Positions 8,259 through 64,000 of a stretch of DNA of 64,000 bases are shown here, in pieces. A model generated the notes under the pieces. The model did no database searches and was not told the DNA's origin. It saw only the letters and a list, made by a program, of their open reading frames with translations. Each line of letters begins with the position of its first letter. The first letter of the stretch is position 1. The DNA is taken from positions 818,497 to 882,496 of the forward strand of contig CP129476.1 in assembly GCA_030583805.1 (NCBI GenBank). Direction: 5' to 3'. This DNA is from Patescibacteria group bacterium. GTDB lineage: Bacteria > Patescibacteriota > Patescibacteriia > SG8-24 > DYFX01. The position numbers and the translations under genes are program-made.

Positions 8259-8259
8259 A

Positions 8260-44657: not shown

Positions 44658-44908
44658 CGGATGCCTCCTTCTGCGAGGGCGAGGTTGGGCCCGTTCTCGT
44701 GGAACGGGACGTTGGTGGCGGGGATCGCCTTGTTGGTCGCCGGGTCGTGACGGCTCAGCTCAGCGTCCACCGTGCTTCCGGTCTCGTGGAGACCGTACGC
44801 GACGGCGCTGACCATGAGGAACACCATGACCGTGACGAACGTCTGGATGATCCAGGTGTTGAACTCGGTACGGTACCGGAGTCCGGTCTTCTGGGCGGTT
44901 TCGTCCAT
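44654..44908 (-). CDS. Islet ORF 8: single-TM small protein (84 aa).
   Basis: TM IIQTFVTVMVFLMVSAVAYGL. Confidence 0.45.
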   Translation of the reverse strand: MDETAQKTGLRYRTEFNTWIIQTFVTVMVFLMVSAVAYGLHETGSTVDAELSRHDPATNKAIPATNVPFHENGPNLALAEGGIR

Positions 44909-44923
44909 GTACGGTTCTCCGTG

Positions 44924-45355: not shown

Positions 45356-45394
45356 GGTGAACTCCGTCTGTGTGGTGGCGGGCGGTGAAGGAGC

Positions 45395-45480
45395 AGCCGT
45401 TTCAGGGCTCCGGCGTCCGGCAGAATTGCGCGGGCACCAGAGGCTGAAGTGGACACGATGTCCACCCAGAGGAAAGAACG
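45395..45480 (-). repeat. Conserved intergenic element family 1, copy 1 (contains the perfect palindrome GTGGACATCGTGTCCAC).
   Basis: About 85% identical to 46410-46498; lies between the stop of ORF 6 and the start of ORF 7. Confidence 0.6.
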
Positions 45481-45497
45481 AGGTGCGGCCGCGAACG

Positions 45498-46382: not shown

Positions 46383-46409
46383 GGTGCACCTCGCTTGGTC
46401 AATGAACGT

Positions 46410-46498
46410 TGCGGTTCAGGGCTTCGGCGTCCGGCGGTATTGCGCGGGCGTCGGAGGCTGAAGAGGACACGATGTCCTCCCAGAGGGACGAAGAAAGG
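46410..46498 (-). repeat. Conserved intergenic element family 1, copy 2 (palindrome GAGGACATCGTGTCCTC).
   Basis: Same architecture as copy 1; the outermost palindrome positions differ in both arms so that the palindrome stays perfect. Confidence 0.6.
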
Positions 46499-46504
46499 AG
46501 CGGC

Positions 46505-47905
46505 TCAGCTGCGCGTGAGCGTCTGTGCGACGGGCGTGCCCGTGATGCTGTGAGCGTTGTAATACCACGTTCCGTCGTTGCTCCAAAGCATACCGTAGCC
46601 GAGCGCGCCTCCCGTGAGGACGTTCGCCAGCGTGGTGTCCACGCCGCTTCCGGCCAGGACGCCTTCCGCGAAGCCGGCGACGTCGCGTGCCAGCGTGGTC
46701 GTTAGCGTCTCACCGCTTCCGTCAGCGCCGCTGACAGTGAGTCGAAGCTCGAGGCTGACGGTCGTGCCGGCGGCGATAATGATCGGCTGGTCGAACACTA
46801 CTCCGGCGCAGACCTCCGAGGTGCTGGCGCCAAAGCCGCAGGTCTGCCCGGCATACCCCAGATAGGAGGTTCCGGCAAGATCGCCGCCCATGCCGAGCTC
46901 ACGAATCCTCGGGGCTTCGACCGTGATGGAAGGATTCGTGTTCACATGGAACGAGAGCTTCTTCACGTGGATGTCCGCACCGGTGTCGGCAGTGATCGCG
47001 ACGCGCGCAACGACTTGCGTGCCATTGGACAGCACGTTCGTCGGCAGCGGCAGCACGGAAATGACGGGCGTCGTCATCGGGACGGACGGACTGGTCGGCT
47101 CGTTGGCCACCAGGTTCGTGAACGGCCCGACAATGCCCGTGTTCGGATGGATATCCTCTACGAGCACCGGCGTTTCGTCGTCGACGCGAACCATGTCACC
47201 CAGCATCGGCGAACCGAGTTGGATCTGGATCTCCGTGCCGTCGAGCGCGACGTTGTTCGCCGTATCTAGGTAGACGCACAACTGCGTCGGCCGATGTGCT
47301 TCGAGGAGGATGATGTCGACGAGATCGATCGGCTGATACGTATCATTGCCTGTTGCATCAACGTCGCGCGGACCGGCCACGACGTTGATCCCGTACAACA
47401 CCTTTATGTCGGTGAAGTTCGGGCGGAGCGTCGCGGCGGACGTGTCGACGAGGCCGCCGGCGGCCGTGTTCTCGCCGATGGCGGCGATAAACATCCGCAG
47501 GCGGCGTACTTCGACATCGACGTTTGCCACGGCGGTGAAGCAGAACACGGGGATGTCCTGCGCGCCGACGGAGCGCTCGTACTGGAACCCGACGTTGAGC
47601 GCCATGTCCACGCGAGCGCGTTCGACCGGCGGACTTTCGGGATCCGGCGGCTCGACCACGACGATGTTGTCGCCGCAGTCCACGGGATCGTCACCTTCGA
47701 CGGTGACGCAGCCGGTCGCGAGCTTCACGATGGCGATCGCGAGGATGTAGAACGGGAGCCCGCGAAGGCTCCACTTCAGGAGCGTGATCTCACGGGGGTT
47801 GGAGCAGACGTTCTTCATTCCGGTCTCCTTGTTGTACGGTACGGCGGTTTTTGTCTGACGATGCGGTCGTTTCCGGCATCGGGCCCCGAAACATTCGGGA
47901 GCCAA
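46505..47905 (-). CDS. Islet ORF 5: large Thr/Val/Gly-rich lipoprotein (466 aa).
   Basis: Lipobox LATGC after an N-terminal TM/signal; beta-rich repetitive composition. Confidence 0.55.
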   Translation of the reverse strand: MAPECFGARCRKRPHRQTKTAVPYNKETGMKNVCSNPREITLLKWSLRGLPFYILAIAIVKLATGCVTVEGDDPVDCGDNIVVVEPPDPESPPVERARVDMALNVGFQYERSVGAQDIPVFCFTAVANVDVEVRRLRMFIAAIGENTAAGGLVDTSAATLRPNFTDIKVLYGINVVAGPRDVDATGNDTYQPIDLVDIILLEAHRPTQLCVYLDTANNVALDGTEIQIQLGSPMLGDMVRVDDETPVLVEDIHPNTGIVGPFTNLVANEPTSPSVPMTTPVISVLPLPTNVLSNGTQVVARVAITADTGADIHVKKLSFHVNTNPSITVEAPRIRELGMGGDLAGTSYLGYAGQTCGFGASTSEVCAGVVFDQPIIIAAGTTVSLELRLTVSGADGSGETLTTTLARDVAGFAEGVLAGSGVDTTLANVLTGGALGYGMLWSNDGTWYYNAHSITGTPVAQTLTRS

Positions 47906-47962
47906 TTGCGGAAGGGGAGGTCGTCACGCTCCCCGAGACTGAGATGAAGCGCGAACGCTTCA

Positions 47963-48130
47963 GACGACGGCGGCACCGACGCTGATCGCCAAGAGGGCGA
48001 TCAAGAGCAGGACAGCGAGCACTGCGCCGTGGCCGAAGGGCCAGTTGTACGCAGCCGAGTAGCGGCTGCAGTCCTCGTACCAGGCGGTAGCCCGGATCTT
48101 CTCGGTTGAGGCGGTGATCATCTTCATCAC
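47963..48130 (-). CDS. Islet ORF 4: micro-protein with a C-terminal TM (55 aa).
   Basis: MKMITASTEKIRATAWYEDCSRYSAAYNWPFGHGAVLAVLLLIALLAISVGAAVV; its start overlaps the ORF 3 stop. Confidence 0.35.
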
Positions 48131-48132
48131 GA

Positions 48133-48285
48133 GGCCTCGTTGAAGGTGCGGATGAACTCTTCGGCGTTCTCGAGCTCCTCCTCGTCGATGAGGAAGGCGC
48201 CGTCGATGCCGCGGAGGTCGTGCGGGGCGATCTCGATGATGATCTCGATCGAAGGACCGTATTCGGTCTGGTCGTGCATGGCGTA
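48133..48285 (-). CDS. Islet ORF 3: acidic micro-protein (50 aa).
   Basis: MHDQTEYGPSIEIIIEIAPHDLRGIDGAFLIDEEELENAEEFIRTFNEAS; preceded by family-2 element copy A. Confidence 0.35.
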
Positions 48286-48299
48286 GCTCCTGGTTGGTG

Positions 48300-48406
48300 G
48301 TTGTTGTGTCGATCTGTCCGACGCTCCTGTCGCACCATGCGGCAGAAGGTCCGGATGAATCGCCCCGCGGTTGCCCGCGGGGGATGAAGCGGATGGAGCG
48401 GAAGGA
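48300..48406 (-). repeat. Conserved leader element family 2, copy A.
   Basis: cccccgcgg-gcaa-ccgcgggg hairpin, then cgattcat ... ccttct ... cgcatggtgcga ... gatcgac ... cacaac, then ATG. Confidence 0.5.
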
Positions 48407-48898
48407 TCAGCGCTGGTTGCGGAGCTGCTCGCGGATCTCGCCGTCGTAGGGGACGAGGCCGCGGCCGCGCACGAGGACGGTGACGCACGTCTTGCGATCG
48501 GGCAGCTTGCTCCGATAGCGCTGCGCGTAGTTCTCGCACGAGCGCGGGCCGTTGGGCGGCTTGCGCTCGTTGGGCGTCAGGCTGGCGAGCGTCTCGGCGA
48601 CCTTCAGGCACAACGCGTCCTTGAGGTCCTCCTCGTCCGGCACGTACGGCTCGCTCTCGTCGATGATCTGATCGACCGTTTTGAAGACCGAGGTCTTCGC
48701 GCGAAGGTCGTTGTTGCCGTGATCGAGCTCGGCGGCGTCGTAGAAGTGATGGAACGAGGGCGCGTACCGGCTGACGAAGGAACCCTTCAGGTTCTCGGCG
48801 CGCAGGCGCCGGTCGTCCATCTCGTCGAGCGGCTTCGCGTTGAGCTTGGTCAGCAACTCCATGCCGGTCTTGGTCTCGGGCTTCGAGTAGTTGGACAT
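48407..48898 (-). CDS. Islet ORF 2: hypothetical (163 aa).
   Basis: Preceded by family-2 element copy B. Confidence 0.45.
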   Translation of the reverse strand: MSNYSKPETKTGMELLTKLNAKPLDEMDDRRLRAENLKGSFVSRYAPSFHHFYDAAELDHGNNDLRAKTSVFKTVDQIIDESEPYVPDEEDLKDALCLKVAETLASLTPNERKPPNGPRSCENYAQRYRSKLPDRKTCVTVLVRGRGLVPYDGEIREQLRNQR

Positions 48899-48917
48899 GT
48901 CAGGCCTCCTGCGGTGC

Positions 48918-49030
48918 GGGGTTGTGCGGTCGATCCATTCCGGCTCTCCTCATCGCACATGCGTGAGAAGGCCCAGAGTGATCGCCCCGCGGAAGAAGTT
49001 CCGCGGGGGAGGTGAGGAAGTGGGATGCGC
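48918..49030 (-). repeat. Conserved leader element family 2, copy B.
   Basis: cccccgcgg-aacttctt-ccgcgggg hairpin, then cgatcact ... ccttct ... cgcatgtgcga ... gatcgac ... cacaac, then ATG. Confidence 0.5.
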
Positions 49031-49314
49031 TAGGCGGCGGCGAGCCAGGGGTCGTCGGCGCAGCCGAGGAAGATCGAGATGTCGTCGGTCAGCTGGGCGC
49101 TGAGGTAGCCGCCGTGCTGCTTGAGGATCACCTGAAGATCCTCGTCGGCGCCCTCGATGAGGGCTTCGGCGGCGATCTCTTCGATGACGTCATGGGTGCG
49201 CGGCGAGCACTCCTCGAACGGATCGATCTCCGCGAGGAAGTTGTAGACGAGGCTGGCAAAGGGAAGGTGCGCGTGTGCTTTCATGGTCAGCTCCGGTGTG
49301 CAGGTGGACAACAC
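49030..49314 (-). CDS. Islet ORF 1: small acidic protein (94 aa).
   Basis: First gene downstream of the consensus promoter. Confidence 0.45.
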   Translation of the reverse strand: MLSTCTPELTMKAHAHLPFASLVYNFLAEIDPFEECSPRTHDVIEEIAAEALIEGADEDLQVILKQHGGYLSAQLTDDISIFLGCADDPWLAAA

Positions 49315-51671: not shown

Positions 51672-52073
51672 TTAGATGATGAGTTTCACCGGAATCGCAC
51701 GCGAGTGCTGCGCTTTCGGCATGGCAATCGTGAGGACACCGTCCTTCAAGGTCGCTTTCGCTTCCTCGCTTTTCACGTCGCTCGGCAAGATAATCGTGCG
51801 GGAGAACCGGCCCCAGTAGCATTCACGGATGAAGTAGTCGCCGCGCTCGACGCGGCCTTCGTGCTCGCGCTTGCCCTTGATGGTGAGCATGTCGCGATTC
51901 AGGAAGATCTCCAGATCATCGGCTTCGACTCCGGCGATGGTCGATTTTACGACGATCGTGTTGCCTTTTTGGAAGACGTCGACTGAGAGCTGCCCCTCAA
52001 GTTCGTCCGCCAACCACGGCTCCTCGACCTTCACCGTTTCGTTTTTCCGCGCTGGTACCTTCCGTTTTGCCAT
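51672..52073 (-). CDS. Hsp20/alpha-crystallin small heat-shock protein.
   Basis: Starts at MAKRKV; alpha-crystallin domain (GVLTIAMPK ...); directly upstream of VanW. Confidence 0.85.
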   Translation of the reverse strand: MAKRKVPARKNETVKVEEPWLADELEGQLSVDVFQKGNTIVVKSTIAGVEADDLEIFLNRDMLTIKGKREHEGRVERGDYFIRECYWGRFSRTIILPSDVKSEEAKATLKDGVLTIAMPKAQHSRAIPVKLII

Positions 52074-52310: not shown

Positions 52311-53483
52311 ATGTCAGATAAGATGATCAATCTTGCGAAGCTTCTAGGTTCGCAGGCCGACAAGCTCGGCTACAAGATCGGCGGGAAACTTCCCGCCGTG
52401 ATCGAGTCGTTTCTGGACAGCCTGATCAAGAAGGGCCAGCTCGGAGAGAACCTCGAAGAGCTCATCCCGGGAGCGCATAAGGTCCTCTCGAAGGGGATCG
52501 AGTTCCTGGGCAACGTGTTCGAACTGCCGAAGGACGACATCAAGAAGGTCGTTCCCGGCTTCCTCGGCGACGTGCTCTACGAGGCGCTCAACGAAGCGGT
52601 CGATGCGATGGGGCGCGGCGCGGGCGATGCACCGAAGGCGGCCGACAAGGCTCCTGAGGACAGCAAGCCTGCGGATGCGCCGCACGCGCTCGATCCCGGA
52701 CAGATGAAGGGCTTCGTCGTCGGCGGACAGCTCCACAAGAGCAACTGCACGACGGCGTCGCGACCGCGAGGGTTCAAGGGCGAGAAGTCGCCCGAGGACA
52801 TCACGGTGCTCGATGCGATCAAGCGGCGCCACGCGCTCAGCTACTGCGGCTGCTGGGGTACTCCCTCGGAAGTCGAAGCGCTGGAAGCGCAAGTGAAGGC
52901 TTCGTTCGCACCCGCGACCGAGCCGAAGGCGACGAAGGCCGAAGCTCCGACGGAAACGCCGGCGCCCAAGCCCGAGAAGCCGAAGTACTCGCTGTTCGAT
53001 CACCTGAAGCGCTTCTACGAGGAAGATCCGTACGCGTACATGCGGACCGTGGACAACGCGTTCCGCAAGCTGATCGCCGAAGATCACGACCTCAAGGTCA
53101 AGTTCTACACGGCGTTCGAGCAGTACGACTACGCGACGTTCCTCTACGTCGTGAAGAAGCCCAACGAGTACTGGCACGCCGAGCTCGACATGCTCATCGG
53201 CCAGCCGAAGCGCGACAAGTCGATCTTGAAGCGCGAGCTGGCCGAGTTCGATCGGATGTTCGACTCCCTGTGCGAACACGTCGACGCCTTCGCCAAGTGG
53301 CTTCTCACCATCACGATGGACTCGGAAGGCAAGACCTCGAAGCAGCGCCGCGATGCTCGCAAGAAGCAGTGGAAGAAGCGCGATGAAAAGCGCGTGCTCA
53401 AAACCCGGGTGACCGGCTACGTCGTGAGCGGCCTCGCTCTCGTCGGTGTCGCCACCTACTTCATCTACAACTCGCCCCTCTGA
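52311..53483 (+). CDS. Hypothetical protein with a C-terminal TM anchor (390 aa).
   Basis: Pro/Ala/Lys-rich linker; C-terminal VTGYVVSGLALVGVATYFIY. Confidence 0.5.
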   Translation: MSDKMINLAKLLGSQADKLGYKIGGKLPAVIESFLDSLIKKGQLGENLEELIPGAHKVLSKGIEFLGNVFELPKDDIKKVVPGFLGDVLYEALNEAVDAMGRGAGDAPKAADKAPEDSKPADAPHALDPGQMKGFVVGGQLHKSNCTTASRPRGFKGEKSPEDITVLDAIKRRHALSYCGCWGTPSEVEALEAQVKASFAPATEPKATKAEAPTETPAPKPEKPKYSLFDHLKRFYEEDPYAYMRTVDNAFRKLIAEDHDLKVKFYTAFEQYDYATFLYVVKKPNEYWHAELDMLIGQPKRDKSILKRELAEFDRMFDSLCEHVDAFAKWLLTITMDSEGKTSKQRRDARKKQWKKRDEKRVLKTRVTGYVVSGLALVGVATYFIYNSPL

Positions 53484-53494
53484 AAGGAGCTGGC

Positions 53495-54805
53495 ATGTCT
53501 GACAACGACAAGAAGAACGGCTTCGTCGAGAAGCATGGTAGTACGCTGCTCTGGATCATCGCCGGCATCGGCGCGATCCTGGCACTGCCTCAGGACAAGA
53601 TCGTGAAGAAGTTCCTGCCCGCGGCCAAGAACGCGCTGTTCGCCCTCTTCAAGGTCGGCGGCGATCTGACGCTCGAGGGCTTCGAACTCGCGCTCAACTG
53701 GCTCAACGAGCACTGGCGCAACTTCAAGATCTCGGTCCTGATCTGGTCCGCCTTCGCCATCTCCGTGATGGTGCTCGGCGTCCATCTGCACAACCATGGG
53801 TACCCGTCCGGCGGCCAGACGGTCGCAGTGATTGGTGCCCTGCTGCTGCAGCTCGTGTTCGCCATCGTGCTGTTCGCTTCGGCGGTCTTCGCGAAGATCC
53901 TGATGTTCAAGCTCGGCTTGTTCAAGCAGGTGCTGAAAGGCAAGAACACGGAAGCCGAGAAGCTCGAGCTCAAGGAGCGTCACAGGAAGTATCAGTGGAT
54001 CATCTTCGCGATCTTCACGATGTTCAGCATCGCGTTGGTCCCCTTCCAACTCTTCGTTTCGTGGGAAGTGCTCGGCCTGACCGTGAAACTGACAGGTCTG
54101 GCCATGCCGGCGATCTTGATCGCTATCGGCAGGGGGAAGAAGGTGGGTCTGGTCTTCGACATGGTGCTGAACGTGCTGATCGGGATCATCATCCTGACGC
54201 TGATCGCCTTCGTGTTCAACAAGTACTTCCCGAGGTCGCTCGGCACCATCCGCATCGGTAACCTCGATGAGTGGATGGGGAATCTGAACACGACCTTGTG
54301 GGTTCTTGGACTGAATGCGCTTGGTTTGCTCGCGCTCTGGTTGTACGGTCGGTTCGACAAGGATGAGCTTCGCGGTATGGCAAAGATGAGAGCGGCCATC
54401 GTGCTCGCGCTCCTCTGCGTCCCGCTGCAGGCCTTCCTGATGTACCGCGGTACGACCAACTACAAGGACGCGACGAACCATGAACCGCCGAACGTGAGCG
54501 AGAAGCTCGACGCCATCAAGAAGGTGTTCCAGTCGGACGACGACGGTTCAGGCAGTAGCAGGAACGTACGGCGCGACCCGCGCACGCAGGTGCCGGCTTC
54601 CCGAGCCGGCACAGGAGTGCACATGGCGCCACCTTCTCGGAGTACCGTGATCAGCACGCCGGAGCGGAAGGTGCCATCCAAGAAGGTGGTCATCGTCCGA
54701 CCCGCGGCGCCGAAGAAGCCGCTGCCTCCGCCGCCCAAGGCAAAGTCCTACGAGGACGATCCTGGGGCGGCGATCGCCGACCTCGAAGCGCTCTACGGCC
54801 AGTAG
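53495..54805 (+). CDS. Polytopic membrane protein with a Pro-rich C-terminal tail (436 aa).
   Basis: About 8 TM helices; C-terminal KKPLPPPPKAKSYEDD. Confidence 0.5.
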   Translation: MSDNDKKNGFVEKHGSTLLWIIAGIGAILALPQDKIVKKFLPAAKNALFALFKVGGDLTLEGFELALNWLNEHWRNFKISVLIWSAFAISVMVLGVHLHNHGYPSGGQTVAVIGALLLQLVFAIVLFASAVFAKILMFKLGLFKQVLKGKNTEAEKLELKERHRKYQWIIFAIFTMFSIALVPFQLFVSWEVLGLTVKLTGLAMPAILIAIGRGKKVGLVFDMVLNVLIGIIILTLIAFVFNKYFPRSLGTIRIGNLDEWMGNLNTTLWVLGLNALGLLALWLYGRFDKDELRGMAKMRAAIVLALLCVPLQAFLMYRGTTNYKDATNHEPPNVSEKLDAIKKVFQSDDDGSGSSRNVRRDPRTQVPASRAGTGVHMAPPSRSTVISTPERKVPSKKVVIVRPAAPKKPLPPPPKAKSYEDDPGAAIADLEALYGQ

Positions 54806-54852
54806 TACCCCCTCCGGAACTCTCCAGTCCCACCGTTCTTTCCCTCCGTCTC

Positions 54853-54890
54853 AGAACGCCTGCCAGCCCAAATGGCAGGCGTTTTCATTT
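54853..54890 (+). terminator. Intrinsic terminator.
   Basis: aacgcctgcca-gcccaaa-tggcaggcgtt followed by ttcattttg. Confidence 0.5.
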
Positions 54891-54902
54891 TGTCGTAAAC
54901 CA

Positions 54903-54931
54903 TTGACAAAAACGCCATTTCATGCTATCCT
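54903..54931 (+). promoter_or_regulatory. sigma70 promoter for the lipoprotein genes.
   Basis: TTGACA, a 17-nt spacer, TATCCT; structured ~90-nt leader. Confidence 0.5.
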
Positions 54932-55024
54932 GAAGACACTTCGGGGCCGGCAATTCTGCTAAAACAAGCCCCGAAACAGCCCTTTTCCCGGTCAATTTCC
55001 ACGCTTCGTGGAGAAAGGTACGTC

Positions 55025-55612
55025 ATGCGTTCCATCACCCTGATCCTGTCACTCGCGCTCGTCTCGCTCACCGGCTGTCTCTGGGGTTCCCAGCAGGCGA
55101 AGACCAAAACGGTCTACCGCCACGACAACGGCATCTACCCCGCCACCGAGACGTCGATCGAGCAGACGTACGCCGGCAACACCTTCGGTGCTTCGGTGCC
55201 GATCGTGATGGGTGGCGGCTACGGCTACGATCCGGCCACCGGCATGGTCTATGGCCAGGGTGGGTACGGCGCGGGAGGATCTTCCTTCTGCGTCCAATAC
55301 CCGACCCGGTGCGCCTCGAACGTGGTCCTGAACGTTCCGCAGCCGAACGTCGTCATGACGGGCGGTTACGGAAGCCAGGTGACGTTCGCCGCCGGTTCCG
55401 CCGGAACCTACAATCCGGCTCCGCAGGCCGACTACGACGAGGTGCAACAGCGCCTCCTCGACGTCGAGAAGCAAACGGCCGTCATCGGCCCGGCGCTCAA
55501 GGAGCAGCTCCGCCTGCAGTGCCAGATGTTTCTGGCGAATCCAGACGTCATCGAGGACGAGGACAAGCGCGAGAAGCTGGTGCAATCCTGCACCAAGCAG
55601 CTCGCCAAGTGA
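55025..55612 (+). CDS. Gly-rich lipoprotein.
   Basis: Lipobox LTGC; GGYGYDPATGMVYGQGGYGAGG. Confidence 0.55.
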   Translation: MRSITLILSLALVSLTGCLWGSQQAKTKTVYRHDNGIYPATETSIEQTYAGNTFGASVPIVMGGGYGYDPATGMVYGQGGYGAGGSSFCVQYPTRCASNVVLNVPQPNVVMTGGYGSQVTFAAGSAGTYNPAPQADYDEVQQRLLDVEKQTAVIGPALKEQLRLQCQMFLANPDVIEDEDKREKLVQSCTKQLAK

Positions 55613-55653
55613 CCGCAACCGTTCCACCCCACACCGCACACAGGAGATCGACC

Positions 55654-56355
55654 ATGCGTTCGTTCATTCCCACGATCCTCGCGATCATGATGTCCGTCAC
55701 CGGATGCGCCGCCGCTCTGAGCAACGCCGAACGGGCCGAGCTCGAGAAGCTGCGCTCCGCCGACCAGGCCGCCCGCGTCGAGCGTGCCAAGAAGGACGGC
55801 TACCGTCCTCCTGGCGCGCCGCAGATGCCGGCAACCTCGCCGACCCCACCTGCCGTTTCGCCGGGCATCGGCATGAACGGCACGCTCAACCACGGCGGTT
55901 CCGCCGCCGTTGTCGAGACGGTCCGCGGCGAACAGCCCGGCTACCTCTGCGTGGCCGGATCGGAGCCTCGGCAGGCACGGAAGGGTCACAAGATCATGAT
56001 CGTGAACAACTACTGCGACGGAGATCGTGACGGCGGCCTCAACTGCGCCGACAACGACTTCGACGGCTTCGTCGACAACGACAGTTACATGTCGTTCGAG
56101 ATCGACGGCAAGCCGGTCGTGGTGACCGGCGGAGGCTCCCAAGGCCTCCTCAAGCCCAAGCAGCGCTGCTACATCAACGTCGATCGGACGCGCCGCGTCC
56201 ATCTCACGGTGATGCGCCACGCCAACATGGGCACGCGCCGCCAAGCGATCATCGATCCAGCGTCTCCCGACGCGACGTTCTCCACGCTGCTCAGACTCGA
56301 AGGCAACGTGACGAACGTCGACCTCACGGAAAACGATCCGTGGTCGGCGCACTGA
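55654..56355 (+). CDS. Lipoprotein.
   Basis: MRSFIPTILAIMMSVTGC lipobox; internal Met of ORF 55309..56355. Confidence 0.55.
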   Translation: MRSFIPTILAIMMSVTGCAAALSNAERAELEKLRSADQAARVERAKKDGYRPPGAPQMPATSPTPPAVSPGIGMNGTLNHGGSAAVVETVRGEQPGYLCVAGSEPRQARKGHKIMIVNNYCDGDRDGGLNCADNDFDGFVDNDSYMSFEIDGKPVVVTGGGSQGLLKPKQRCYINVDRTRRVHLTVMRHANMGTRRQAIIDPASPDATFSTLLRLEGNVTNVDLTENDPWSAH

Positions 56356-56436
56356 CGACGCATCGCAGTACTCAGAAGTAAAAAAACGGCCCAACGCATT
56401 CGCGAAGGGCCGTTCTTATTTTTCCGGAACTGTTGC

Positions 56437-56859
56437 TTACGGCGTGGCCGTCGTGGCGCGGATGACCGCGTTGATGATGAAGCCGGTGAGCGCGTAGGCC
56501 AGGAAGATGATGATGAGACCGATGATGCACTGCTTGATGATCTCTTTGGCCTTGTCGATCGGGTCGCTCTCGCCGCGCGCCGTCATCCAGAGGAAACCGG
56601 CGTAGACCATGAGGACCAGGAAGATGATACCGAGGAGACCGAGGAGCGTGCGGATGATGCGGCCGATGATGAGCGGGAGCTGCTGGCCAGCCGTGGCGGC
56701 GTCGCCGCTGTTCGGGTTCGGATTGGCGGCGTTCAGGCAGCCAAGGGCGTTTCCGGTGCTCGGGTCGCAAGGAGCTTGCGCGCCGACGGGCATCGCGACC
56801 AGGGCCATCTGACTCATGGTGAGGAGCGAGATGAAACCCAGAAGAAGTTTCTTGAGCAT
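56437..56859 (-). CDS. TrbC/VirB2-like (T4SS-type) pilin paralog 1.
   Basis: Signal peptide, then IIGRIIRTLLGLLGIIFLVLMVYAGFLWMTARGESD ... IIGLIIIFLAYAL: the two-TM pilin core. Confidence 0.6.
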   Translation of the reverse strand: MLKKLLLGFISLLTMSQMALVAMPVGAQAPCDPSTGNALGCLNAANPNPNSGDAATAGQQLPLIIGRIIRTLLGLLGIIFLVLMVYAGFLWMTARGESDPIDKAKEIIKQCIIGLIIIFLAYALTGFIINAVIRATTATP

Positions 56860-56884
56860 ACGATGTGAGGTGATTAGCAGGGGA

Positions 56885-57223
56885 TTAGGCGCCGGCGGCC
56901 GGAGCGGCTGTTCTGGCGACTGCGTTCAGGACGAACGCGGCGATCGCGTAGGCGGCGGAGATGATGATGAGTCCGATCACGGCGTTCTTCAGCAGTTCCT
57001 TGGCGTGCTTCACCTTGGCATCATCGCCTTGCGCCGTCAGCCAGAGGTAGCCGGCGTAGATGATCAGCACCATGAAGACGATGCCGAGGAGCCCGATGAA
57101 GGTGCGTACGAGGTTGCCGATGAGTTCCGGAAGCGTGGTCGGCGAGTTGAGGTTGGCCGCTTCGGCGACGTCGAGCAGTTTGTCCGCACCGAAGTTCTGA
57201 GCCAGTTTTTGCATGTCAGCCAT
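56885..57223 (-). CDS. TrbC/VirB2-like pilin paralog 2.
   Basis: LIGNLVRTFIGLLGIVFMVLIIYAGYLWLTAQGDD ... IGLIIISAAYA. Confidence 0.6.
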   Translation of the reverse strand: MADMQKLAQNFGADKLLDVAEAANLNSPTTLPELIGNLVRTFIGLLGIVFMVLIIYAGYLWLTAQGDDAKVKHAKELLKNAVIGLIIISAAYAIAAFVLNAVARTAAPAAGA

Positions 57224-57234
57224 AGATGGGGCGC

Positions 57235-57804
57235 TTACGAGGCCTCAGCGCAGAGGCCGAAGCTGCAGGGCTGCGCTTCGCTTCCGATCGACGGGTCGCC
57301 CTCGCCGAGGCATTCGCACGTTCCGGTGTAGCAGTAGTTGCCGGGAACGCTGCAGTCCGAGGCGGTCGTGCACGTACGCGTCGTACATTCGTTCGTATCG
57401 ACCGTGATCGGCGTTGGGCCGTTCGGGTCGGACGCCGAGCCTGAGGAGGCTGTACCGGCTACGGCATTGATGACGAAGGCGGTGAGCGCGTACGACGCGG
57501 CGATGATGATGAGTCCCGTGACCGCTCCGGAAATGATCTTCTTTGCCGTATCGATTTTCTTGTCGTCGCCCCGGGCCGTCATGTAGAGAAAGCCGGAGTA
57601 GAGCATCAGGATCAGGAACAGGACGCCGAGATAACTGAGCACCGTCTGGATGAGCCGGCCGATCGTGGCCAGCAAGTCTTTGTTGCCTTTGAGCGAAGAC
57701 GGGGCGGCGGCATCAAGGCCGAATTGGGCGTAGACGTCGGGCAGTGCGACGAGCATGACGGCCACGAGGCACAGCGCCGGAAGAAGAATGCGTTTCAAGC
57801 GCAT
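57235..57804 (-). CDS. TrbC/VirB2-like pilin paralog 3 with a Cys-rich C-terminal extension.
   Basis: Pilin core IGRLIQTVLSYLGVLFLILMLYSGFLYMTARGDD, plus a C-terminal CTTRTCTTASDCSVPGNYCYTGTCECLGEG ... C. An alternative start lies at 57855. Confidence 0.55.
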   Translation of the reverse strand: MRLKRILLPALCLVAVMLVALPDVYAQFGLDAAAPSSLKGNKDLLATIGRLIQTVLSYLGVLFLILMLYSGFLYMTARGDDKKIDTAKKIISGAVTGLIIIAASYALTAFVINAVAGTASSGSASDPNGPTPITVDTNECTTRTCTTASDCSVPGNYCYTGTCECLGEGDPSIGSEAQPCSFGLCAEAS

Positions 57805-57915
57805 ACGTAGAGTGAGTTCAAGGGATCCGGAGATACCGGCGAACGTCGCCGGCATCTCCCGAGACCTTGTGACGACGCCCCGATTCGCATCGGGGCGTCG
57901 CGGTAAGGCGTTGTA

Positions 57916-58314
57916 CTAGGCGGTCGTAGCGGTCACGAGACTGTTGATCACGAACGATGCGATCGCGTAAGCGGTCAAGATGATGATCAAGCCGATAATA
58001 CCGGCCGTGATGATCTTCTTGGCGTCGCCGACGGCTTCATCGGAACCACCGGACGTCATCCATTTGAAACCTCCGTACAGGATGATCATAACGGCAATGA
58101 TACCGAGTAGGCTCATGGCCGTGCGGACGATACGCGCGATCGTGATGCGCAGGTCCTGCTGTTGCTGGCCGAGCTCGGTCGCGATTTGACCGGGCAGGAG
58201 CTCGTTGGACGTCACTGCACCCTGGGCCAAAGCGACCATCGGGAGCGCCATCGTCGCGAGCATTGCCGTACTGATCAGACCCTTGACAAGCGTTTTCTTC
58301 GTCATGCAAATCAC
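57916..58314 (-). CDS. TrbC/VirB2-like pilin paralog 4.
   Basis: IARIVRTAMSLLGIIAVMIILYGGFKWMTSGGSDE. Confidence 0.6.
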   Translation of the reverse strand: MICMTKKTLVKGLISTAMLATMALPMVALAQGAVTSNELLPGQIATELGQQQQDLRITIARIVRTAMSLLGIIAVMIILYGGFKWMTSGGSDEAVGDAKKIITAGIIGLIIILTAYAIASFVINSLVTATTA

Positions 58315-58327
58315 CTCCTTTCAGGCG

Positions 58328-58651
58328 TTAGCCCGTGATAGCCGAGAATACGAAGCGGACAAGTCCGTAACTGGTGAAGATCACCACGAGACCGATCGCC
58401 GCCCATTTCATAGCTTCTTTGCCTGCGCTCACTTTACCAGCCTCGCCACCCGAGGTCAACCAAATAAATCCACCATAGATGAAGACCAGCAGCGCGAGCG
58501 CGCCGACAATGCCGATCGCTGCTCTCAAAATATTGGCAATGAGTTCGGGAACCGAATTGGCGTTGAGCGGATTCTGCAATGTGATGGTTTCTTGGGCTGA
58601 AACGGCGAAAGGAACCAAGAATGCGGCGAGGATGGAAAGAATCTTTTTCAT
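58328..58651 (-). CDS. TrbC/VirB2-like pilin paralog 5 (minimal 107-aa form).
   Basis: Signal peptide, then LIANILRAAIGIVGALALLVFIYGGFIWLTSGGEAGK ... IGLVVIFTSYGL. Confidence 0.65.
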   Translation of the reverse strand: MKKILSILAAFLVPFAVSAQETITLQNPLNANSVPELIANILRAAIGIVGALALLVFIYGGFIWLTSGGEAGKVSAGKEAMKWAAIGLVVIFTSYGLVRFVFSAITG

Positions 58652-58654
58652 ACG

Positions 58655-59728
58655 TCAGGAAGAGGAAAGCGCGTTGAGCAAGATTGAGAGCACTGCGTAT
58701 GAAAGGAAGATCGCGGCGAGGGCGGACACGGTCGTCGTGATCATGCCGCGAGCCTCGGCGACTTTCTTTTCATCGCCCGCGGCGGTCATGTACTTGATGC
58801 CGCCCCAGATGAAGAAGACGAGCGCGATTGCGCCGACGACGCCGAGCAATGTGCGGATGACGCGCCCGATAACCGCAGGCAGACTGATGCTTCCAAGAGG
58901 CAAGGGGAGTGAAATCGCGCTTCCGCGTTCGGTGACCGATCCGGTTCCCGCCGGCGCGCTTTGTTCCATTTTTGCCAGCGCCGCCAGGATGGCGTCACCT
59001 TTACGGATCGCTTCCAAACACGCCCGGTAGCGAGCCTTTGTCTCTTCAGCGTCGGCGGCGCTCAAGTACGAAATGTAGAGGTCACCGCGAACGGTCAAGG
59101 TGCCCGCATCACAGAATTCCGAAAAGGCCATGAACGCATCGTGCTTAGCGCTATGGAATGCGATTTCGTCAGTAAAAAGCTGCGTTCCGGGTTCAATCGT
59201 CAAGCCTTCAATTCCACGCGTTGTACCGAAGGTGAGCACCCGATCGTTCACGTACATGTCGTTCGGAATGATCGTATAGTCGAAAGCGTTTTTGATCGCT
59301 TCCCACGCCGCCTGATCTTCCGGTACGAGCTCGGTGCGTTCGGAGAGGGTGATCGTTTCGCCATCGATGACCACGGTCGGTCGATAGGTATGCTCGCGCG
59401 CGCTTTGATTCAAGATGACGGCGAAGGATTCTTCCGCCAGTTTCCTGCCAGCCGAAAGATGGATGCAGTAGGTTTTCGCATCCGGCCTAGTCGACGTGCA
59501 GTTCGGAAATTGGTCTGCCAACGTGATCGTGCGTTCCGTGGCTCGAAGCGCCAAGTCGTAGTGACTTTCACAAAACGATCGATACTGCGCCGGCACTGGC
59601 GTAGCCGCTTCGGTGCAAGTTATCAATGGCAACCATAACGCTTTGGCAGCGAATGGCGCGGCAGCGACAAAGGCGATCGTGGCGCTGACCATCACTACTC
59701 CGAGCGTTCTTGCGGCAGAATTCTGCAT
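58655..59728 (-). CDS. Fusion protein: ~250-aa N-terminal extracellular domain plus a C-terminal TrbC/VirB2-like pilin core.
   Basis: C-terminal VIGRVIRTLLGVVGAIALVFFIWGGIKYMTAAGDE ... LAAIFLSYAVL. Confidence 0.55.
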   Translation of the reverse strand: MQNSAARTLGVVMVSATIAFVAAAPFAAKALWLPLITCTEAATPVPAQYRSFCESHYDLALRATERTITLADQFPNCTSTRPDAKTYCIHLSAGRKLAEESFAVILNQSAREHTYRPTVVIDGETITLSERTELVPEDQAAWEAIKNAFDYTIIPNDMYVNDRVLTFGTTRGIEGLTIEPGTQLFTDEIAFHSAKHDAFMAFSEFCDAGTLTVRGDLYISYLSAADAEETKARYRACLEAIRKGDAILAALAKMEQSAPAGTGSVTERGSAISLPLPLGSISLPAVIGRVIRTLLGVVGAIALVFFIWGGIKYMTAAGDEKKVAEARGMITTTVSALAAIFLSYAVLSILLNALSSS

Positions 59729-59734
59729 AGACGA

Positions 59735-60433
59735 TTAATTCAAGCAGCAAGCGAAGTCGGCAGGCTTGCTCGGGCAGAGGCCGCGTACGCAGCTCGAAGC
59801 GCCGCTCACGTTCTGGCAGCTGTAGACCTCGCCCCGTTGTCGCTTCTCGAGTTCGCTGTTGAGCGCCTTGCAATCGTCTTTCTTGATGCACACGACCGAC
59901 TCGGGAATGGTCTTTCCGTTGGGATCGATGCCGGCAGGGATTGAGACCCACAAACCGTCAGCCGCGGTGCAGAGCCCACCGTCGCAAACGCCGAGGCCAT
60001 TGCAATCAGCACTCGATGTGCATCCTCTCGGGAGACTCTTCTGCGCGGCAGCATTGCAGGATTCGCCGATCGTCGGGATCGCGGAAGTGCCACCTGTCAA
60101 CGCCTGGGTCGTGAAACGTACGAGGATGCCCGAGAGGAAGATGATGGCGATGCCGATGATCGCGCTCTTCAGGATGCCGATCGCCTTGCCGACCTTCGTC
60201 TTGTCTCCCGCGGCCAGGATGAAGGTAAAACCGCCGTACACGAAATAGAGCAGGGCCACGGCGCCGGAGATGCCGATCAGGTATTCGGCGGCATTGACGA
60301 AGGTGATCAGGATGTCGCTCACGCCGCAGTTGCCGCTTTCGGTGCATGGCGGCAAGAGCCTAATTTGGGCGGAAGCGGCAAAGGGAAGGATGGCGAGCCA
60401 GGCGGGAAGCGCGAAACGAAAAAGGCGTTTCAT
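59735..60433 (-). CDS. TrbC/VirB2-like pilin paralog 7 with a Cys-rich C-terminal domain.
   Basis: Starts at MKRLFRF (an internal Met of the 280-aa ORF); core ISGAVALLYFVYGGFTFILAAGDKTK; 12 Cys in the C-terminal 130 aa. Confidence 0.55.
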   Translation of the reverse strand: MKRLFRFALPAWLAILPFAASAQIRLLPPCTESGNCGVSDILITFVNAAEYLIGISGAVALLYFVYGGFTFILAAGDKTKVGKAIGILKSAIIGIAIIFLSGILVRFTTQALTGGTSAIPTIGESCNAAAQKSLPRGCTSSADCNGLGVCDGGLCTAADGLWVSIPAGIDPNGKTIPESVVCIKKDDCKALNSELEKRQRGEVYSCQNVSGASSCVRGLCPSKPADFACCLN

Positions 60434-60509
60434 ATCGTGAATAAGTGTAGCATAAAAACAACGATCCCGGCTTGAGCCGGGATGCGATGTGTGGACAGGC
60501 TTGTCGGGC

Positions 60510-61901
60510 TTAGCGGATCGTCTGGGCGATGGTCTGGATCGCCAGGTTGATGGCGCGGTTCGGGTCCACTCCCGCAAGTGTCGCGTCGATCATTTCGTCG
60601 AAGGCGCCCTCGGTAGCCGCGATATTTACGCCTTGGTACCAGCTTTTGGCCGTCAGGACTTGGGAGGCGAAGACGCCGAGATCCGGTTCGCTGAGCTGGG
60701 TGTTTACCAGGCTTCGGAGCGCCGTCGGCTTGCCTGTTTTGGCCAAATACAGCTTGGCTTGGTCGGCTTTTGCGGCGAATTGGACGAAATCCCAGGCGGC
60801 ATCGGGGTTTTTCGTCTTTTTAGAGACGGTTTCGACCCAATAATTGGCGTAATTGACCCTTGCGGCCGGGTCGATCTGCGGCACGTTCGTCAGGCTGAAG
60901 TTCAACTTGGGCGCCTGCGAGCGGATGCGCGGAAGGTGGTAGGAATAGCCGAAGAAATAAGCCGTTTTGCCCGAAACGAAGGCGTCGTAGGAGTTCGGCT
61001 GGGTGTCATCCCAGGTGAACACTTCCTTAGAGGGGTTGGCGAAATCCGTGTAGAAGACGAGTGCTTCCAGGCCGGGCGGCACCTCTCGGTCGAGGTTTTC
61101 CGGGGTGCGGTTGAAGGTCGGGATACCGTTGGCATCCGTCATTCTCGCGCCATTTTGCATCATGAGGAGCGAAAGAAGGTCGAAAGAACGCTCGACATTC
61201 TTCGAGGTACCGATGCCGACGGCCGGTTTTACGAGCTTTCCCTGGGCGTCATAGGCGGTCAGGCGCTTCACGTGATCCTGGAATTCCGCCCATGTCGTGG
61301 CGGCCGTGGGGATCCCGGCGGCGTTCAGCACGTCGCGGTTGTAGTAGAGCACCATCGTATCGAGCGCCATCGGCAAGCCCCAGAGCTGGTCGACGATGCC
61401 TTTGCCGGGCTCCTCGGCCTGGCCCTTGATGACGACGTCCCGGCTGACCTGGTCGACGAACTGGTCGCGTACTTGGGCCGGAGTGATGACAGGCAGCGTT
61501 TTTTCAACCCATACCGGGTTCTTTTGGACGCCCTGGATCTCGCGGAACGACATTTTCACCGAAGCCGGGGCGGGCAGGAGCTTGGTTTGATACGAGCGGA
61601 TCCAGTCGTTGTGCAAGGAGATGATGTCCGGTCCGCGGTCTTCGGCCAGGGCGTTCAAAAGCTCGCGCTCGTACTCTTCGAGCCGGAGCTTTCGGTAGTT
61701 GACGGTGACGTTCGGGTGGAGCGCGCGATAGGCGGCGACGATTTCGTCGAAGGAGTCGCTGTCATCGAGCACGCGCCAGTAGGTGAGGGTCAGGGGCTTC
61801 GACGACGCGGGCGCCGTTTGGAGATTCGAAGACAGACAGCCGGCACCGCTCACGACCAAAGCGGCCAGGAGGACGATTGAAGCGAGGCGGATGCGCAGCA
61901 T
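60510..61901 (-). CDS. ABC transporter substrate-binding lipoprotein (SBP family 1, sugar/oligosaccharide type).
   Basis: Starts at MLRIRLASIVLLAALVVSGAGC (lipobox); SBP_bac_1-like fold. Confidence 0.75.
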   Translation of the reverse strand: MLRIRLASIVLLAALVVSGAGCLSSNLQTAPASSKPLTLTYWRVLDDSDSFDEIVAAYRALHPNVTVNYRKLRLEEYERELLNALAEDRGPDIISLHNDWIRSYQTKLLPAPASVKMSFREIQGVQKNPVWVEKTLPVITPAQVRDQFVDQVSRDVVIKGQAEEPGKGIVDQLWGLPMALDTMVLYYNRDVLNAAGIPTAATTWAEFQDHVKRLTAYDAQGKLVKPAVGIGTSKNVERSFDLLSLLMMQNGARMTDANGIPTFNRTPENLDREVPPGLEALVFYTDFANPSKEVFTWDDTQPNSYDAFVSGKTAYFFGYSYHLPRIRSQAPKLNFSLTNVPQIDPAARVNYANYWVETVSKKTKNPDAAWDFVQFAAKADQAKLYLAKTGKPTALRSLVNTQLSEPDLGVFASQVLTAKSWYQGVNIAATEGAFDEMIDATLAGVDPNRAINLAIQTIAQTIR

Positions 61902-61905: not shown

Positions 61906-62772
61906 TTACGAAAGAAGTTTCTTGAGGCCTTTCTTGAACTCGGGCGCGACTTGCGGGTGGCGAAGGCCGTAGGCCATCGAGGCGAGGAGGAATTGGACCT
62001 TGTTTCCGCAGTCGTAGCGGGTGGCGTCGGCAATGCGTCCGTAGATAGCGGCGCCTTTGGTGAGGTGGGTGATGAAGGCGTCCGCCAAGCGGATTTCCCC
62101 GTCTTTTCCGGGCTTTTGCGTCTTCAGGATCTCCATGATCTCCGGCGTGATGATGTACCGGCCGACCGCGGCGAGCGAGGAGGGAGCGTCCTCCATTTTC
62201 GGTTTTTCAACGAAGCCGTCGAGTTCCATGACCGCTTTCGACGTCATGGTGCCGCTCGCGATGCCGTAGCTTGAGACGTTCTTCTTGCCGACGTCGCAGA
62301 GTGCGATGATCGGGTCGTGATATTTCTCGTAGGCGTCGATGAGCTGGGCGGTGACGGGGATGCGGGCGTCGAAGATGTCGTCGCCGAAAAGGATGGCGAC
62401 CGGTTCGTGCGCGTCGACGAAGGGGAGAGCGGCCAGGATCGCGTGGCCGTCGCCGAGCGGCGCTTGCTGGCGCACGAAGGCGAACTTCGCCATGTTCGAG
62501 ATGCGGCGGAGGTTGTCGAGCTCGTCCTTCTTACCTTTTTCCTTCAGGCGCGTTTCCAGCTCGAAGTTGCGGTCGAAATGGTCTTCGATGGCGCGCTTGG
62601 TCAGGCTCGTGACGAAGATGATTTCTTCGATGCCGGAGGCGACGGCCTCCTCGACGACGTACTGAATGACCGGCTTATCGACGATCGTGAGCATCTCTTT
62701 CGGCTGGGCTTTGGTGGCGGGCAGGAAACGCGTTCCCATGCCGGCCACGGGCAGAATGGCTTTGCGGATCTT
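61906..62772 (-). CDS. galU: UTP--glucose-1-phosphate uridylyltransferase.
   Basis: Starts at MKIRKAILPVAGMGTRFLPATKAQPKEML. Confidence 0.9.
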   Translation of the reverse strand, partial: KIRKAILPVAGMGTRFLPATKAQPKEMLTIVDKPVIQYVVEEAVASGIEEIIFVTSLTKRAIEDHFDRNFELETRLKEKGKKDELDNLRRISNMAKFAFVRQQAPLGDGHAILAALPFVDAHEPVAILFGDDIFDARIPVTAQLIDAYEKYHDPIIALCDVGKKNVSSYGIASGTMTSKAVMELDGFVEKPKMEDAPSSLAAVGRYIITPEIMEILKTQKPGKDGEIRLADAFITHLTKGAAIYGRIADATRYDCGNKVQFLLASMAYGLRHPQVAPEFKKGLKKLLS

Positions 62773-62818
62773 CATAGGCGGGATATGGGAAAAGTATAGC
62801 AGAATGTTACGATGTCGC

Positions 62819-64000
62819 CATGCTGCCACAGCGAACCCATCGCGTCTTGTTCTCGTGCCTTCTGGCGATAACGCTTTGTTTTTCGCTCATACATCTCGGT
62901 CGATGGGCGTTGATGGACGCGGATGAGGCGATTTACGCCCGCGTATTCCACGAAAGCCTCGTGCGCGGAGACTTCGCCTCTTTTACGATGCTCGGCCAGC
63001 CGTGGTTCGAAAAGCCTCCGTTGTTCTTTTGGCTCGCGCGCCTGAGCGTCGCCGCGTTCGGCGAGACGGCTTTTGCGCTCAGGCTGGTATCCGCCCTGTC
63101 GATCGTGGCGTGCGTGGCGCTTGTCGTCGCGATCGTCCGACGCCTCACGAAGGATGATGCGGCCGCGCTTGTCGCGGGCGCGACGCTGCTTTTTACGGGA
63201 CTGTTCGTGTTTGCAGGCCGGCAAGTACGAATGGACGTGCCGGTCACGGCGCTGATCCTTCTCGCGTTTTACGTGTTCCTTTCGGGGCAGGAACGGCCTC
63301 GACGGCTCGCATGGTTCGGTCCAGTCGTCGCGGCGGGCGTTTTGTGCAAAAGCGTTATCGGCCTCTTGGCCTATCCCGCCATTCTCATTTTTTCGCTCCT
63401 TCGCGGGGATTGGCGCTGGCTCAAAAGCAAATGGTTTTGGGGCGGGCACGCGATCGGCGCGCTGCTCGTCCTGCCGTGGCACGCGTATCAGACGGCCAGG
63501 TTCGGCCGCGCCTTCTGGGATTCGTATCTCTTCGCCCAAGTGCTCGCGCGCGTGAACCAAGCCGTCGTCTACGGGCGCGAGGCGCCGATCACGTACCATC
63601 TGAAACAGCTCTTCGTTCTCGCGAACCCCTGGCTGTTCGCCTTTCTCGCGGCGCTCGCGTGGGCGTGCGTCGTCGCCAGAAAAGAATGGCGGGCGTACCG
63701 GGACGAAATCGCGTCAGGCATGCTCGCGCTGTTTTTCTTTCTGCTTTTCTTCCTGCCGAGGACGCGGCTCTTGTATTACTTCGTCCCCGCGCTGCCGTTT
63801 ACGGCCATCTTCCTGGCGCTGGTTTGGCGCCGATGGCGCATGCGGGCTCCCCGCGCGGCTGTCGTCGTGCTGTACGCGTGTCTTGCGCTCGGAGCGCTCG
63901 GCACGTCGCTCAGGATTTTCGACCAGCGCGACCGCGACCTGTTCTTGCGGCCATTGTCCGTGCCAAGCCGGTACATGATCGCTGAAGACGAAAAAATCGC
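62819..64000 (+). CDS. GT39/GT83 (ArnT/PMT-like) membrane glycosyltransferase, N-terminal ~394 aa; continues beyond the window end.
   Basis: Hand translation: MLPQRTHRVLF ... DADEAIYARVFHESLVRGDF ... GQPWFEKPPLFFWL (the DE...KPPL motif of ArnT/PMT). Multiple TM helices. No stop reached, so absent from the ORF track. Confidence 0.7.

Follow-up and report, generated by a model that had tools for sequence, protein, structure and literature searches.

The stretch of DNA analysed here (64 kb, hereafter the window) belongs to a Patescibacteria metagenome-assembled genome (MAG) that consists of a single contig of 1,167,441 bp, and it contains at positions 56437-60433 seven consecutive open reading frames (ORFs) of the minus strand, which we number pil1 to pil7 in the order of transcription. 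The spacers between these genes measure 3-25 nt, with the single exception of the 111 nt that separate pil4 from pil5. An alignment of the seven products rendered a common core of ca. 73 amino acids (aa), which carries the motifs quoted in a preliminary description of this DNA that had been made from the sequence alone. The pil4 and pil1 products are identical to the database entries WKZ28798.1 and WKZ28801.1, respectively, and the NCBI product name of the latter is 'pilin'. The window is chromosomal and bears housekeeping genes encoding PNPase, ClpP, an SMC-like ATPase, a malic enzyme and an H+-pyrophosphatase. The seven genes are listed below with their scores against the Pfam family PF18895 (T4SS_pilin, where T4SS stands for type IV secretion system).

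59735-60433, minus strand: pil1, 232 aa, 33.3 bits; signal peptide, core and a 119-aa Cys-rich C-terminal extension
58655-59728, minus strand: pil2, 357 aa, 30.7 bits; signal peptide, an N-domain of ca. 250 aa, core
58328-58651, minus strand: pil3, 107 aa, 54.3 bits; minimal pilin (signal peptide and core)
57916-58305, minus strand: pil4, 129 aa, the same length as WKZ28798.1, 37.9 bits; minimal pilin
57235-57804, minus strand: pil5, 189 aa, 30.1 bits; signal peptide, core and a 72-aa C-terminal module with 8 Cys
56885-57223, minus strand: pil6, 112 aa, 44.1 bits; 30-aa hydrophilic N-terminus and core, no signal peptide
56437-56859, minus strand: pil7, 140 aa, 39 bits; signal peptide, an N-terminal region of ca. 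40 aa with 2 Cys, core; last gene of the array

The core shared by the seven genes is far beyond chance, because a hidden Markov model (HMM) built on it and run against the six-frame translation of the window found exactly seven copies, with E values from 5e-26 to 3e-35, while the next match had an E value of 1.4. All seven products score above the PF18895 gathering score of 26.6 bits (range, 30.1-54.3), and the public precomputed annotation agrees. The traits of that family, two hydrophobic helices with a short loop in a core of ca. 70 aa, were observed both in the hydropathy profiles and in the AlphaFold2 models of pil1 and pil2. Full-length identity of the other array members to pil7 is 31-46%. 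According to hydropathy, six of the genes encode an N-terminal signal-like segment followed by the two hydrophobic helices and pil6 encodes the two helices only; the six segments, read by hydropathy together with sequence, end at an A-x-A-like site. With cleavage sites inferred from the A-x-A rule, Gln is the predicted mature N-terminus of five of the six proteins with a signal peptide. The preliminary description had reported seven tandem minus-strand genes with a common core, which the core HMM confirms at the same positions, and had ascribed them to the T4SS-type pilins of Patescibacteria, an assignment supported by the origin of the genome and by the outcome of the search against the Pfam T4SS pilin model that it had proposed as a check. 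It had also attributed a signal peptide to all seven products, which holds for six of them but not for pil6, as judged from its reading frame and hydropathy.

The more specific attribution to TrbC/VirB2 made in that description stands as far as the T4SS_pilin family is concerned, but none of the seven genes matched PF04956 (TrbC/VirB2) at E<=1. Among homologs of pil4, PF04956 is the second-ranked family after PF18895, with matches at E<=0.01 in 13 of 42 sequences and a best E value of 5.5e-5. A 42-sequence pil4 profile was compared by hhalign with Agrobacterium VirB2 (the VirB2 sequence was checked to be 100% identical to PDB 8CUE/8EXH), which rendered a probability of 6% and an alignment that is in register but not significant. 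A profile of the seven proteins searched against PDB sequences gave chance matches only (rhodopsins, E ca. 3), and fold searches retrieved generic helical hairpins, with no specific match to solved conjugative pilins. The link to the true VirB2 rests on the Pfam name, on the 13 weak PF04956 matches among 42 homologs and on published structure-based annotation. Another model, NF045849, which represents a pilin-like conjugal transfer protein of a Mycoplasma integrative and conjugative element (ICE), was matched by six of the seven genes in the window, with E values from 1e-4 to 5e-10 and a best score of 39.1 bits, just under the curated cut-off of 40; all 42 pil4 homologs matched it, with E values down to 8e-13. 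These matches hint at a homolog of these pilins in elements of the MPF-FATA type from monoderms, and VirB2-like pilins have been treated as absent from monoderm MPF-FATA systems (PMC12102498). A tblastn search of pil6 against 72,556 plasmids gave no match.

Related loci (designated by L and a number) were collected with pil4 as the query by scanning a single genome of each species, which rendered 80 loci, all of them representing one branch of the family; the genome of the window was not among the species representatives scanned. The loci include some from Ca. Paceibacter, Uhrbacteria and Magasanikbacteria, and 12 of the 80 belong to the same seven-gene clade as the window. Many of the TPA (third party annotation) MAG records (L009, L011-L015 and others) are titled 'uncultured Gammaproteobacteria bacterium', which looks like a placeholder or a mislabel. 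Two other loci, L005 (JGI, 320-kb contig) and L006 (GCA_964388605.1), were found through homologs of pil2, and not with pil4 as the query. Both contain the same seven genes with the same flanks as the window. The identity of the cores is 75-99% between positional orthologs (86-90% for pil7) and 29-58%, with a mean of 39%, between paralogs. At full length, pil4 is 95-98% identical to its L005 and L006 orthologs, as compared with 77-93% in the same genomes for GalU, a solute-binding protein (SBP), HSP20 and VanW, so that no other gene of the neighbourhood is as conserved as pil4. This conservation is not an artefact of selection, since L005 and L006 had not been found with pil4.

In distant lineages (Uhrbacteria, Magasanikbacteria, Buchananbacteria and others) the arrays mostly comprise 5-12 genes and show a recurring order of pilin types, and a pil4-like member is found in other Patescibacteria lineages with a core identity of 59-70%. 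Two single ORFs, of 220 and 251 aa (L036:8753 and L069:8753, respectively), each contain two matches to the pilin core and may be tandem-fused pilins. At the DNA level, the identity of the repeats among the seven copies of the window is 61-77%, and long identical tracts are missing; the sole inverted repeat in the array is 26 nt long and 81% identical, and none flanks a promoter. All seven copies are complete ORFs, and none of them is truncated. To judge from these comparisons, the array is ancient and each of its positions has been maintained, which speaks for seven non-redundant roles and against variation cassettes. The alternative of recent duplication versus an ancient array, posed in the preliminary description, is thus settled by the identities of the cores in favour of the latter.

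Three members of the array are fusions, as had been recognised, with extra domains at the C-terminus in pil1 and pil5 and at the N-terminus in pil2. The Cys-rich modules had been described as containing 12 Cys, which is the number found in the 119-aa extension of pil1 but not in the module of pil5, with 8. The pil1 extension has two parts, a lineage-specific insert (ca. residues 114-158) and, after it, a small alpha/beta domain that is conserved (residues 160-232). The AlphaFold2 model of this protein has a mean pLDDT (predicted local distance difference test score) of 84, with helices 38-73 and 78-113 forming a hairpin and a C-domain at pLDDT 96-97, and ca. 80 full-length homologs of pil1 were found. 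A 21-aa motif (C-T-[ST]-[AS]-x-D-C...G-x-C) is common to the pil5 module and the pil1 insert. Regarding pil2, the ca. 250 aa ahead of the core are present as described, but their 'globular' nature finds no support, since the AlphaFold2 model is unreliable in the N-domain (pLDDT 30-60); the core helices lie at 283-315 and 320-356. Public gene callers place the start of pil2 at 59692, which gives a protein of 345 aa. When 1.84 billion representative proteins were searched exhaustively with this N-domain, no more than two credible relatives emerged, both of them also consisting of the N-domain and a pilin core.

A comparison of domain types covering 13 genomes of the clade indicates a swapping of the extra domains at positions 2, 3 and 5 among close relatives, the one at position 1 being constant. 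The position-1 C-domain is of one sequence type in all 11 clade genomes with the gene on the contig. The position-2 N-domain, on the other hand, is found as five mutually unrelated sequence types across the clade, and the position-5 module as four sequence types, being absent in three of the 13 genomes. At position 3, five relatives carry an N-terminal insert of 47-102 aa that is not present in the window. The G+C content at third codon positions (GC3) is 0.792 +/- 0.050 for window genes of at least 200 aa; it is 0.636 in the pil2 N-domain (58904-59728) versus 0.805 in the core of the same gene, 0.644 in the window-specific insert of pil1 (59960-60094) and 0.611 in pil3 (58328-58651). These pieces coincide with those that vary among relatives, and their atypical GC3 suggests an acquisition by recombination from a donor of lower G+C content.

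Other relatives fuse the same core to much larger regions, either to Big_5 domains in proteins of 674-900 aa or to Big_7, TIG, Big_5 and Laminin_G_3 domains in proteins of up to 2,802 aa. Domains of the Big, TIG and Laminin_G types are common in adhesins. In the giant fusions, found at L039:7986-16379, L047:7920-16340, L073:7962-14753, L081:7857-14654, L084:7833-13736 and L087:5898-9632, the core is N-terminal, and each of them is preceded by a pilin-core protein of 674-900 aa with Big_5. Genes of ca. 470 aa upstream of the giant fusions were considered as possible SBP genes and rejected, as they correspond to hisS (checked in L039 and L084).

The lack of a signal peptide in pil6 is not a matter of where the gene is taken to start, for the reading frame opens just seven codons upstream of the ATG. 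The window protein starts with ..KLAQNFG, few residues ahead of the cleavage site of its orthologs, which lies between ..AHA and QDFG. The signal peptide is absent in the window and in L008-L010, L012 and L013, and it is present in L011 and L014-L019. Since the five nearest relatives also lack it and distant orthologs keep it, the loss is genuine and has persisted.

Three segments of the array region have RNA signals:

57872-57901 and 57829-57859 (within 57819-57901), minus strand: two RNA hairpins in the pil4-pil5 spacer, with no U-tract
56380-56417, strand not assigned: intrinsic terminator with an A-run, an 11-bp G+C-rich stem and U7, which ends the array and is shared with the convergent gene 55654-56355
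60454-60483, minus strand: terminator-like hairpin and U-tract between the stop codon of the SBP gene and the start of pil1

The two hairpins of the pil4-pil5 spacer have a minimum free energy of -67 kcal/mol (z-score, -6.7), and the first of them starts 17 nt past the pil4 stop codon. This first hairpin was found in 12 of 12 clade relatives, in which the sequences of the stem differ and seven pairs show compensatory changes. No Rfam family matches the hairpins, and the element is not repeated in the window. The start of pil5 at 57804 (MRLKR) is kept in relatives, and another ATG, at 57855, falls within the second hairpin. We read the hairpins as a putative element for stabilising or processing the 3' end of the mRNA, by which the dose of pil1-pil4 would rise above that of pil5-pil7, and this agrees with a role of pil4 as the major subunit. 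The terminator at the end of the array folds with -37.7 kcal/mol (z-score, -4.2), and the hairpin ahead of pil1 comprises an 8-bp stem with six G-C pairs followed by CGTTGTTTTT, ca. 20 nt from the pil1 ATG; terminators of the canonical type are in use in this organism. A scan of the array for sigma-70-type promoters rendered fewer sites than expected by chance, none of them upstream of pil1.

Two genes of the same strand precede the array:

61906-62775, minus strand: GalU-like UTP-glucose-1-phosphate uridylyltransferase (NTP_transferase, 88.7 bits; TIGR01099, 325 bits with a cut-off of 326.8)
60510-61901, minus strand: sugar-type extracellular SBP (SBP_bac_1, 91 bits), with a signal peptide followed by Cys

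The nearest solved relatives of the SBP are binding proteins of sugar ATP-binding cassette (ABC) transporters, and it looks like an orphan, as no gene for an ABC permease or ATPase turned up in the window. An SBP gene, preceded by one for GalU, lies directly upstream and on the same strand in 49 of the 50 arrays that have three or more pilins and an upstream stretch of 1.5 kb or longer; none of 12 loci with solo or duo pilins has these genes. In 50 of the 80 related loci, a GalU homolog is located ca. 1.3-1.5 kb ahead of the array. No mention of a linkage of GalU and SBP to pilin arrays was found in the searchable literature. Just beyond GalU (62913-63998 in the window; L001:1-5739) there are genes for a PMT_2-type glycosyltransferase and two Wzy_C proteins (O-antigen ligase/oligosaccharyltransferase-like). 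The pilins end in Thr/Ala/Pro-rich tails, and pilin glycosylation is conceivable.

On the other side, four plus-strand genes (52311-56355) are oriented convergently towards the 3' side of the array; they have no Pfam or NCBIfam match and are kept only in the seven-gene clade. Their products are a protein of 390 aa whose single membrane helix is C-terminal, a multi-pass membrane protein of 436 aa with a tail rich in Pro (53495-54805), which might conceivably be a VirB6 analogue, and two lipoprotein-like proteins. A divergent protein of ca. 750 aa is encoded beside solo pil4-like pilins in L045:4105-6366, L054:991-3285, L060:5535-7829 and L086:5603-7897. The ca. 750-aa neighbours of solo pilins were considered as VirB4 candidates and rejected, as they have no Pfam match or only weak Ig-like or EccB-like (type VII secretion system) ones. 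Further away in the window, the region 44400-49300 contains small genes without family match and with a GC3 of 0.86-0.95, one of them, of 294 aa, with a weak tyrosine-invertase-like match, and it may be an integrated element. Two tandem Peptidase_C92 paralogs (permuted papain-like amidase) are found at 7623-8931 on the minus strand.

The seven-gene array is a further member of a kind of pilin array already published for Patescibacteria. Wang et al. (2023, PMC10633639) described in Ca. Southlakia epibionticum ML1 an array of six pilin genes, SEML1_0014-0019, within a T4SS cluster; all six products belong to PF18895 and two also match TrbC/VirB2 weakly (PMC10633639, Table S2), and each of the six genes is individually essential according to transposon sequencing (PMC10633639). 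The two arrays resemble each other in consisting of divergent PF18895 genes in tandem on the same strand (six there, seven here) of a Patescibacteria chromosome, with an HSP20 gene near the 3' side. This last resemblance (51672-52073 in the window, SEML1_0020 in Ca. S. epibionticum) could be a coincidence. They differ in that the Southlakia array adjoins VirB6-like and PrgI-like genes, whereas in the window there is no T4SS gene and GalU and SBP genes are found upstream, and in the large extra domains that three members bear here. A survey by Quinonero-Coronel et al. (2025, PMC12102498) identified 441 arrays of 2-11 PF18895 genes in 383 assemblies, with a within-array identity of 25% on average and 54% at most. 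It also found 1,948 assemblies with a VirB2-like pilin and VirB4, the pilin being near virB4 in 1,135 of them, detected no adhesins of the PrgB type in Patescibacteria, and considered an adaptation to host strains (PMC12102498). Our array shares with those of the survey the Pfam model, the arrangement of at least two genes in tandem or one gene apart (seven adjacent genes here) and the high divergence (core identity of 29-58% here, with a mean of 39%). The main text of that survey makes no mention of domain-fused pilins, positional orthology, a GalU-SBP linkage or an intercistronic hairpin. What is new here is not the kind of array but its age, the conservation of pil4 and of the hairpin that follows it, the domain swapping, the loss of the signal peptide in pil6 and the linkage to GalU and SBP.

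The comparison can be extended to pilins of other bacteria. Agrobacterium T-pilin VirB2 and RP4 TrbC also have a signal peptide, two hydrophobic helices with a short loop and a mature core of ca. 70-75 aa, and the predicted N-terminal Gln of the mature pil proteins is paralleled by VirB2, which is cleaved between Ala and Gln. True VirB2 genes, however, sit in virB or trb operons and lack fusions to large domains. The Mbov_0395/MMCAP2_0565 family (NF045849) is similar in its 80-aa two-helix core, in its monoderm hosts and in belonging to a transfer system of the MPF-FATA type, but it is found as a single gene in a mobile element and not as a chromosomal array. The T4SS of Bartonella and Anaplasma include VirB2 paralogs in tandem, which, as cited in PMC12102498, have been read as broadening the interaction with the host surface. 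They are likewise several divergent pilin paralogs side by side, but those bacteria are diderm animal pathogens with a classical VirB system, whereas the paralogs studied here are ancient and fixed and show their variation in the appended domains and not in the core.

The interpretation that we favour, and that we regard as moderately probable, is that the pil genes encode a set of T4SS-type pilins in which the major subunit is a single conserved protein, the minor subunits are fixed and the heads that bind the host are exchangeable. Each protein would enter the membrane via Sec and lose its signal peptide, pil6 being inserted without one. The mature pilin would be a hairpin of two helices whose two ends lie outside the cell, as would be expected from a cleaved signal peptide and two membrane helices, and such outside termini would fit the Cys-rich modules, which are probably disulfide-bonded. 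The subunits would be extracted from the membrane and polymerised into a thin filament by an ATPase of the VirB4 type, whose gene would lie elsewhere in the genome. pil4 is a candidate for the major subunit because it is the most conserved member and is followed by the conserved hairpin; it would be the main building block, and the other plain paralogs would be non-redundant minor subunits. pil1, pil2 and pil5 could then be subunits of low copy number whose domains, disulfide-rich or larger, are displayed at the surface or the tip of the filament and bind the host cell there, and the exchange of these display domains between lineages would adapt host recognition. Several observations weigh against this interpretation. 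As the preliminary description had stated for VirB4, VirB6 and VirB11, no member of these families, nor of the T4CP (type IV coupling protein) or PrgI families, was found by the Pfam scan among the ca. 50 ORFs of the window. Within 8 kb on either side of the 80 related loci, the sole T4SS-type ATPase is a T4CP beside a solo pilin in L025, a MAG with an 11-gene pilin array on another contig. Location in or beside a T4SS cluster, a trait of the Ca. S. epibionticum array, is seen neither in the window nor in its syntenic relatives, and the constant partner of the arrays is an SBP gene and not a T4SS gene. Moreover, the C-terminal extensions found in relatives reach 2,670 aa and would be hard to pack in a filament except at its tip or base, and a 2025 review treats the pilus of Patescibacteria only as a possibility, no such filament having been seen in any of them.

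The main rival to this interpretation is surface display without a filament, with the PF18895 hairpin as a membrane anchor for extracellular domains in a monoderm without other anchors and the plain members as anchors or partners with no polymerising role. In its favour are the relatives in which the core is N-terminal and the protein, 674-2,802 aa long, bears Ig-like, TIG and lectin-type domains, as well as the separation of the arrays from T4SS ATPases in the 80 loci and the fold searches, no more specific than a helical hairpin. Against it, pil3, pil4, pil6 and pil7 display little or nothing and are yet conserved by position, the barest of them, pil4, being the most conserved. The family is, besides, essential within the T4SS cluster of Ca. 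S. epibionticum, and members of it match TrbC/VirB2 and the ICE pilin-like model. We consider the anchor-only reading unlikely. Still less probable is that the GalU, SBP and pilin genes form an uptake or scavenging organelle that captures sugars or glycans of the host, independently of a T4SS or loosely tied to it. The position of SBP_bac_1 directly upstream of 49 of 50 arrays, with GalU before it, the sugar-binding type of the SBP and the lack of an ABC permease in the window all point in that direction, and uptake via the pilus is a matter of speculation in the 2025 review. On the other hand, the hairpin and U-tract between the SBP gene and pil1 mean that these may not be one transcript, the Saccharibacteria array adjoins T4SS genes and not an SBP gene, gene order alone is no proof of shared function, and all 80 loci were found with pil4 and represent one branch of the family.

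A last possibility, that the copies are recent and interchangeable cassettes for antigenic or phase variation, expressed one at a time or recombining, could be suggested by the reading of the Bartonella and Anaplasma VirB2 paralogs, as cited in PMC12102498, and by the tyrosine recombinase genes present elsewhere in the window. Phase variation was rejected on the evidence of the DNA repeats, which are only 61-77% identical and include neither long identical tracts nor promoter-flanking inverted repeats, and it is close to refuted. The same conclusion is reached from the cores, much more alike between positional orthologs than between paralogs, from the full length of all copies and their tight, operon-like spacing, and from the individual essentiality of the six pilins of Ca. 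S. epibionticum; we give this explanation hardly any credence. The preliminary description had envisaged antigenically variable or functionally specialised subunits or tip adhesins. Specialisation agrees with the positional orthology, the domain swapping and the adhesin-type domains of the giant fusions, but antigenic variation by recent duplication or gene conversion is not supported.

A broader proposal, which we put forward as speculative and rather doubtful, is that the GalU/SBP/pilin module constitutes a distinct surface organelle of Patescibacteria of the Paceibacteria and ABY1 types, outside the origin-proximal T4SS cluster. PF18895 proteins would be its polymerising or anchoring scaffold, onto which interchangeable heads of very different size, from disulfide knots of 50 aa to adhesins of 2,700 aa, would be grafted by recombination, while the orphan SBP would help to capture host glycans and the hairpin would set the dose.

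A large part of the diversity of bacteria is accounted for by Patescibacteria, which live attached to other microbes and recognise their hosts in ways that are largely obscure. The T4SS-like system with a pilin array is the sole secretion system of these bacteria that has been shown to be essential for the host-attached lifestyle. The finding that the arrays of many lineages are accompanied by a gene for a sugar-binding protein rather than by a secretion ATPase adds to this picture, and the extra domains at the exchanged positions represent concrete candidates for determinants of host recognition in a phylum for which the published survey had detected no adhesins.

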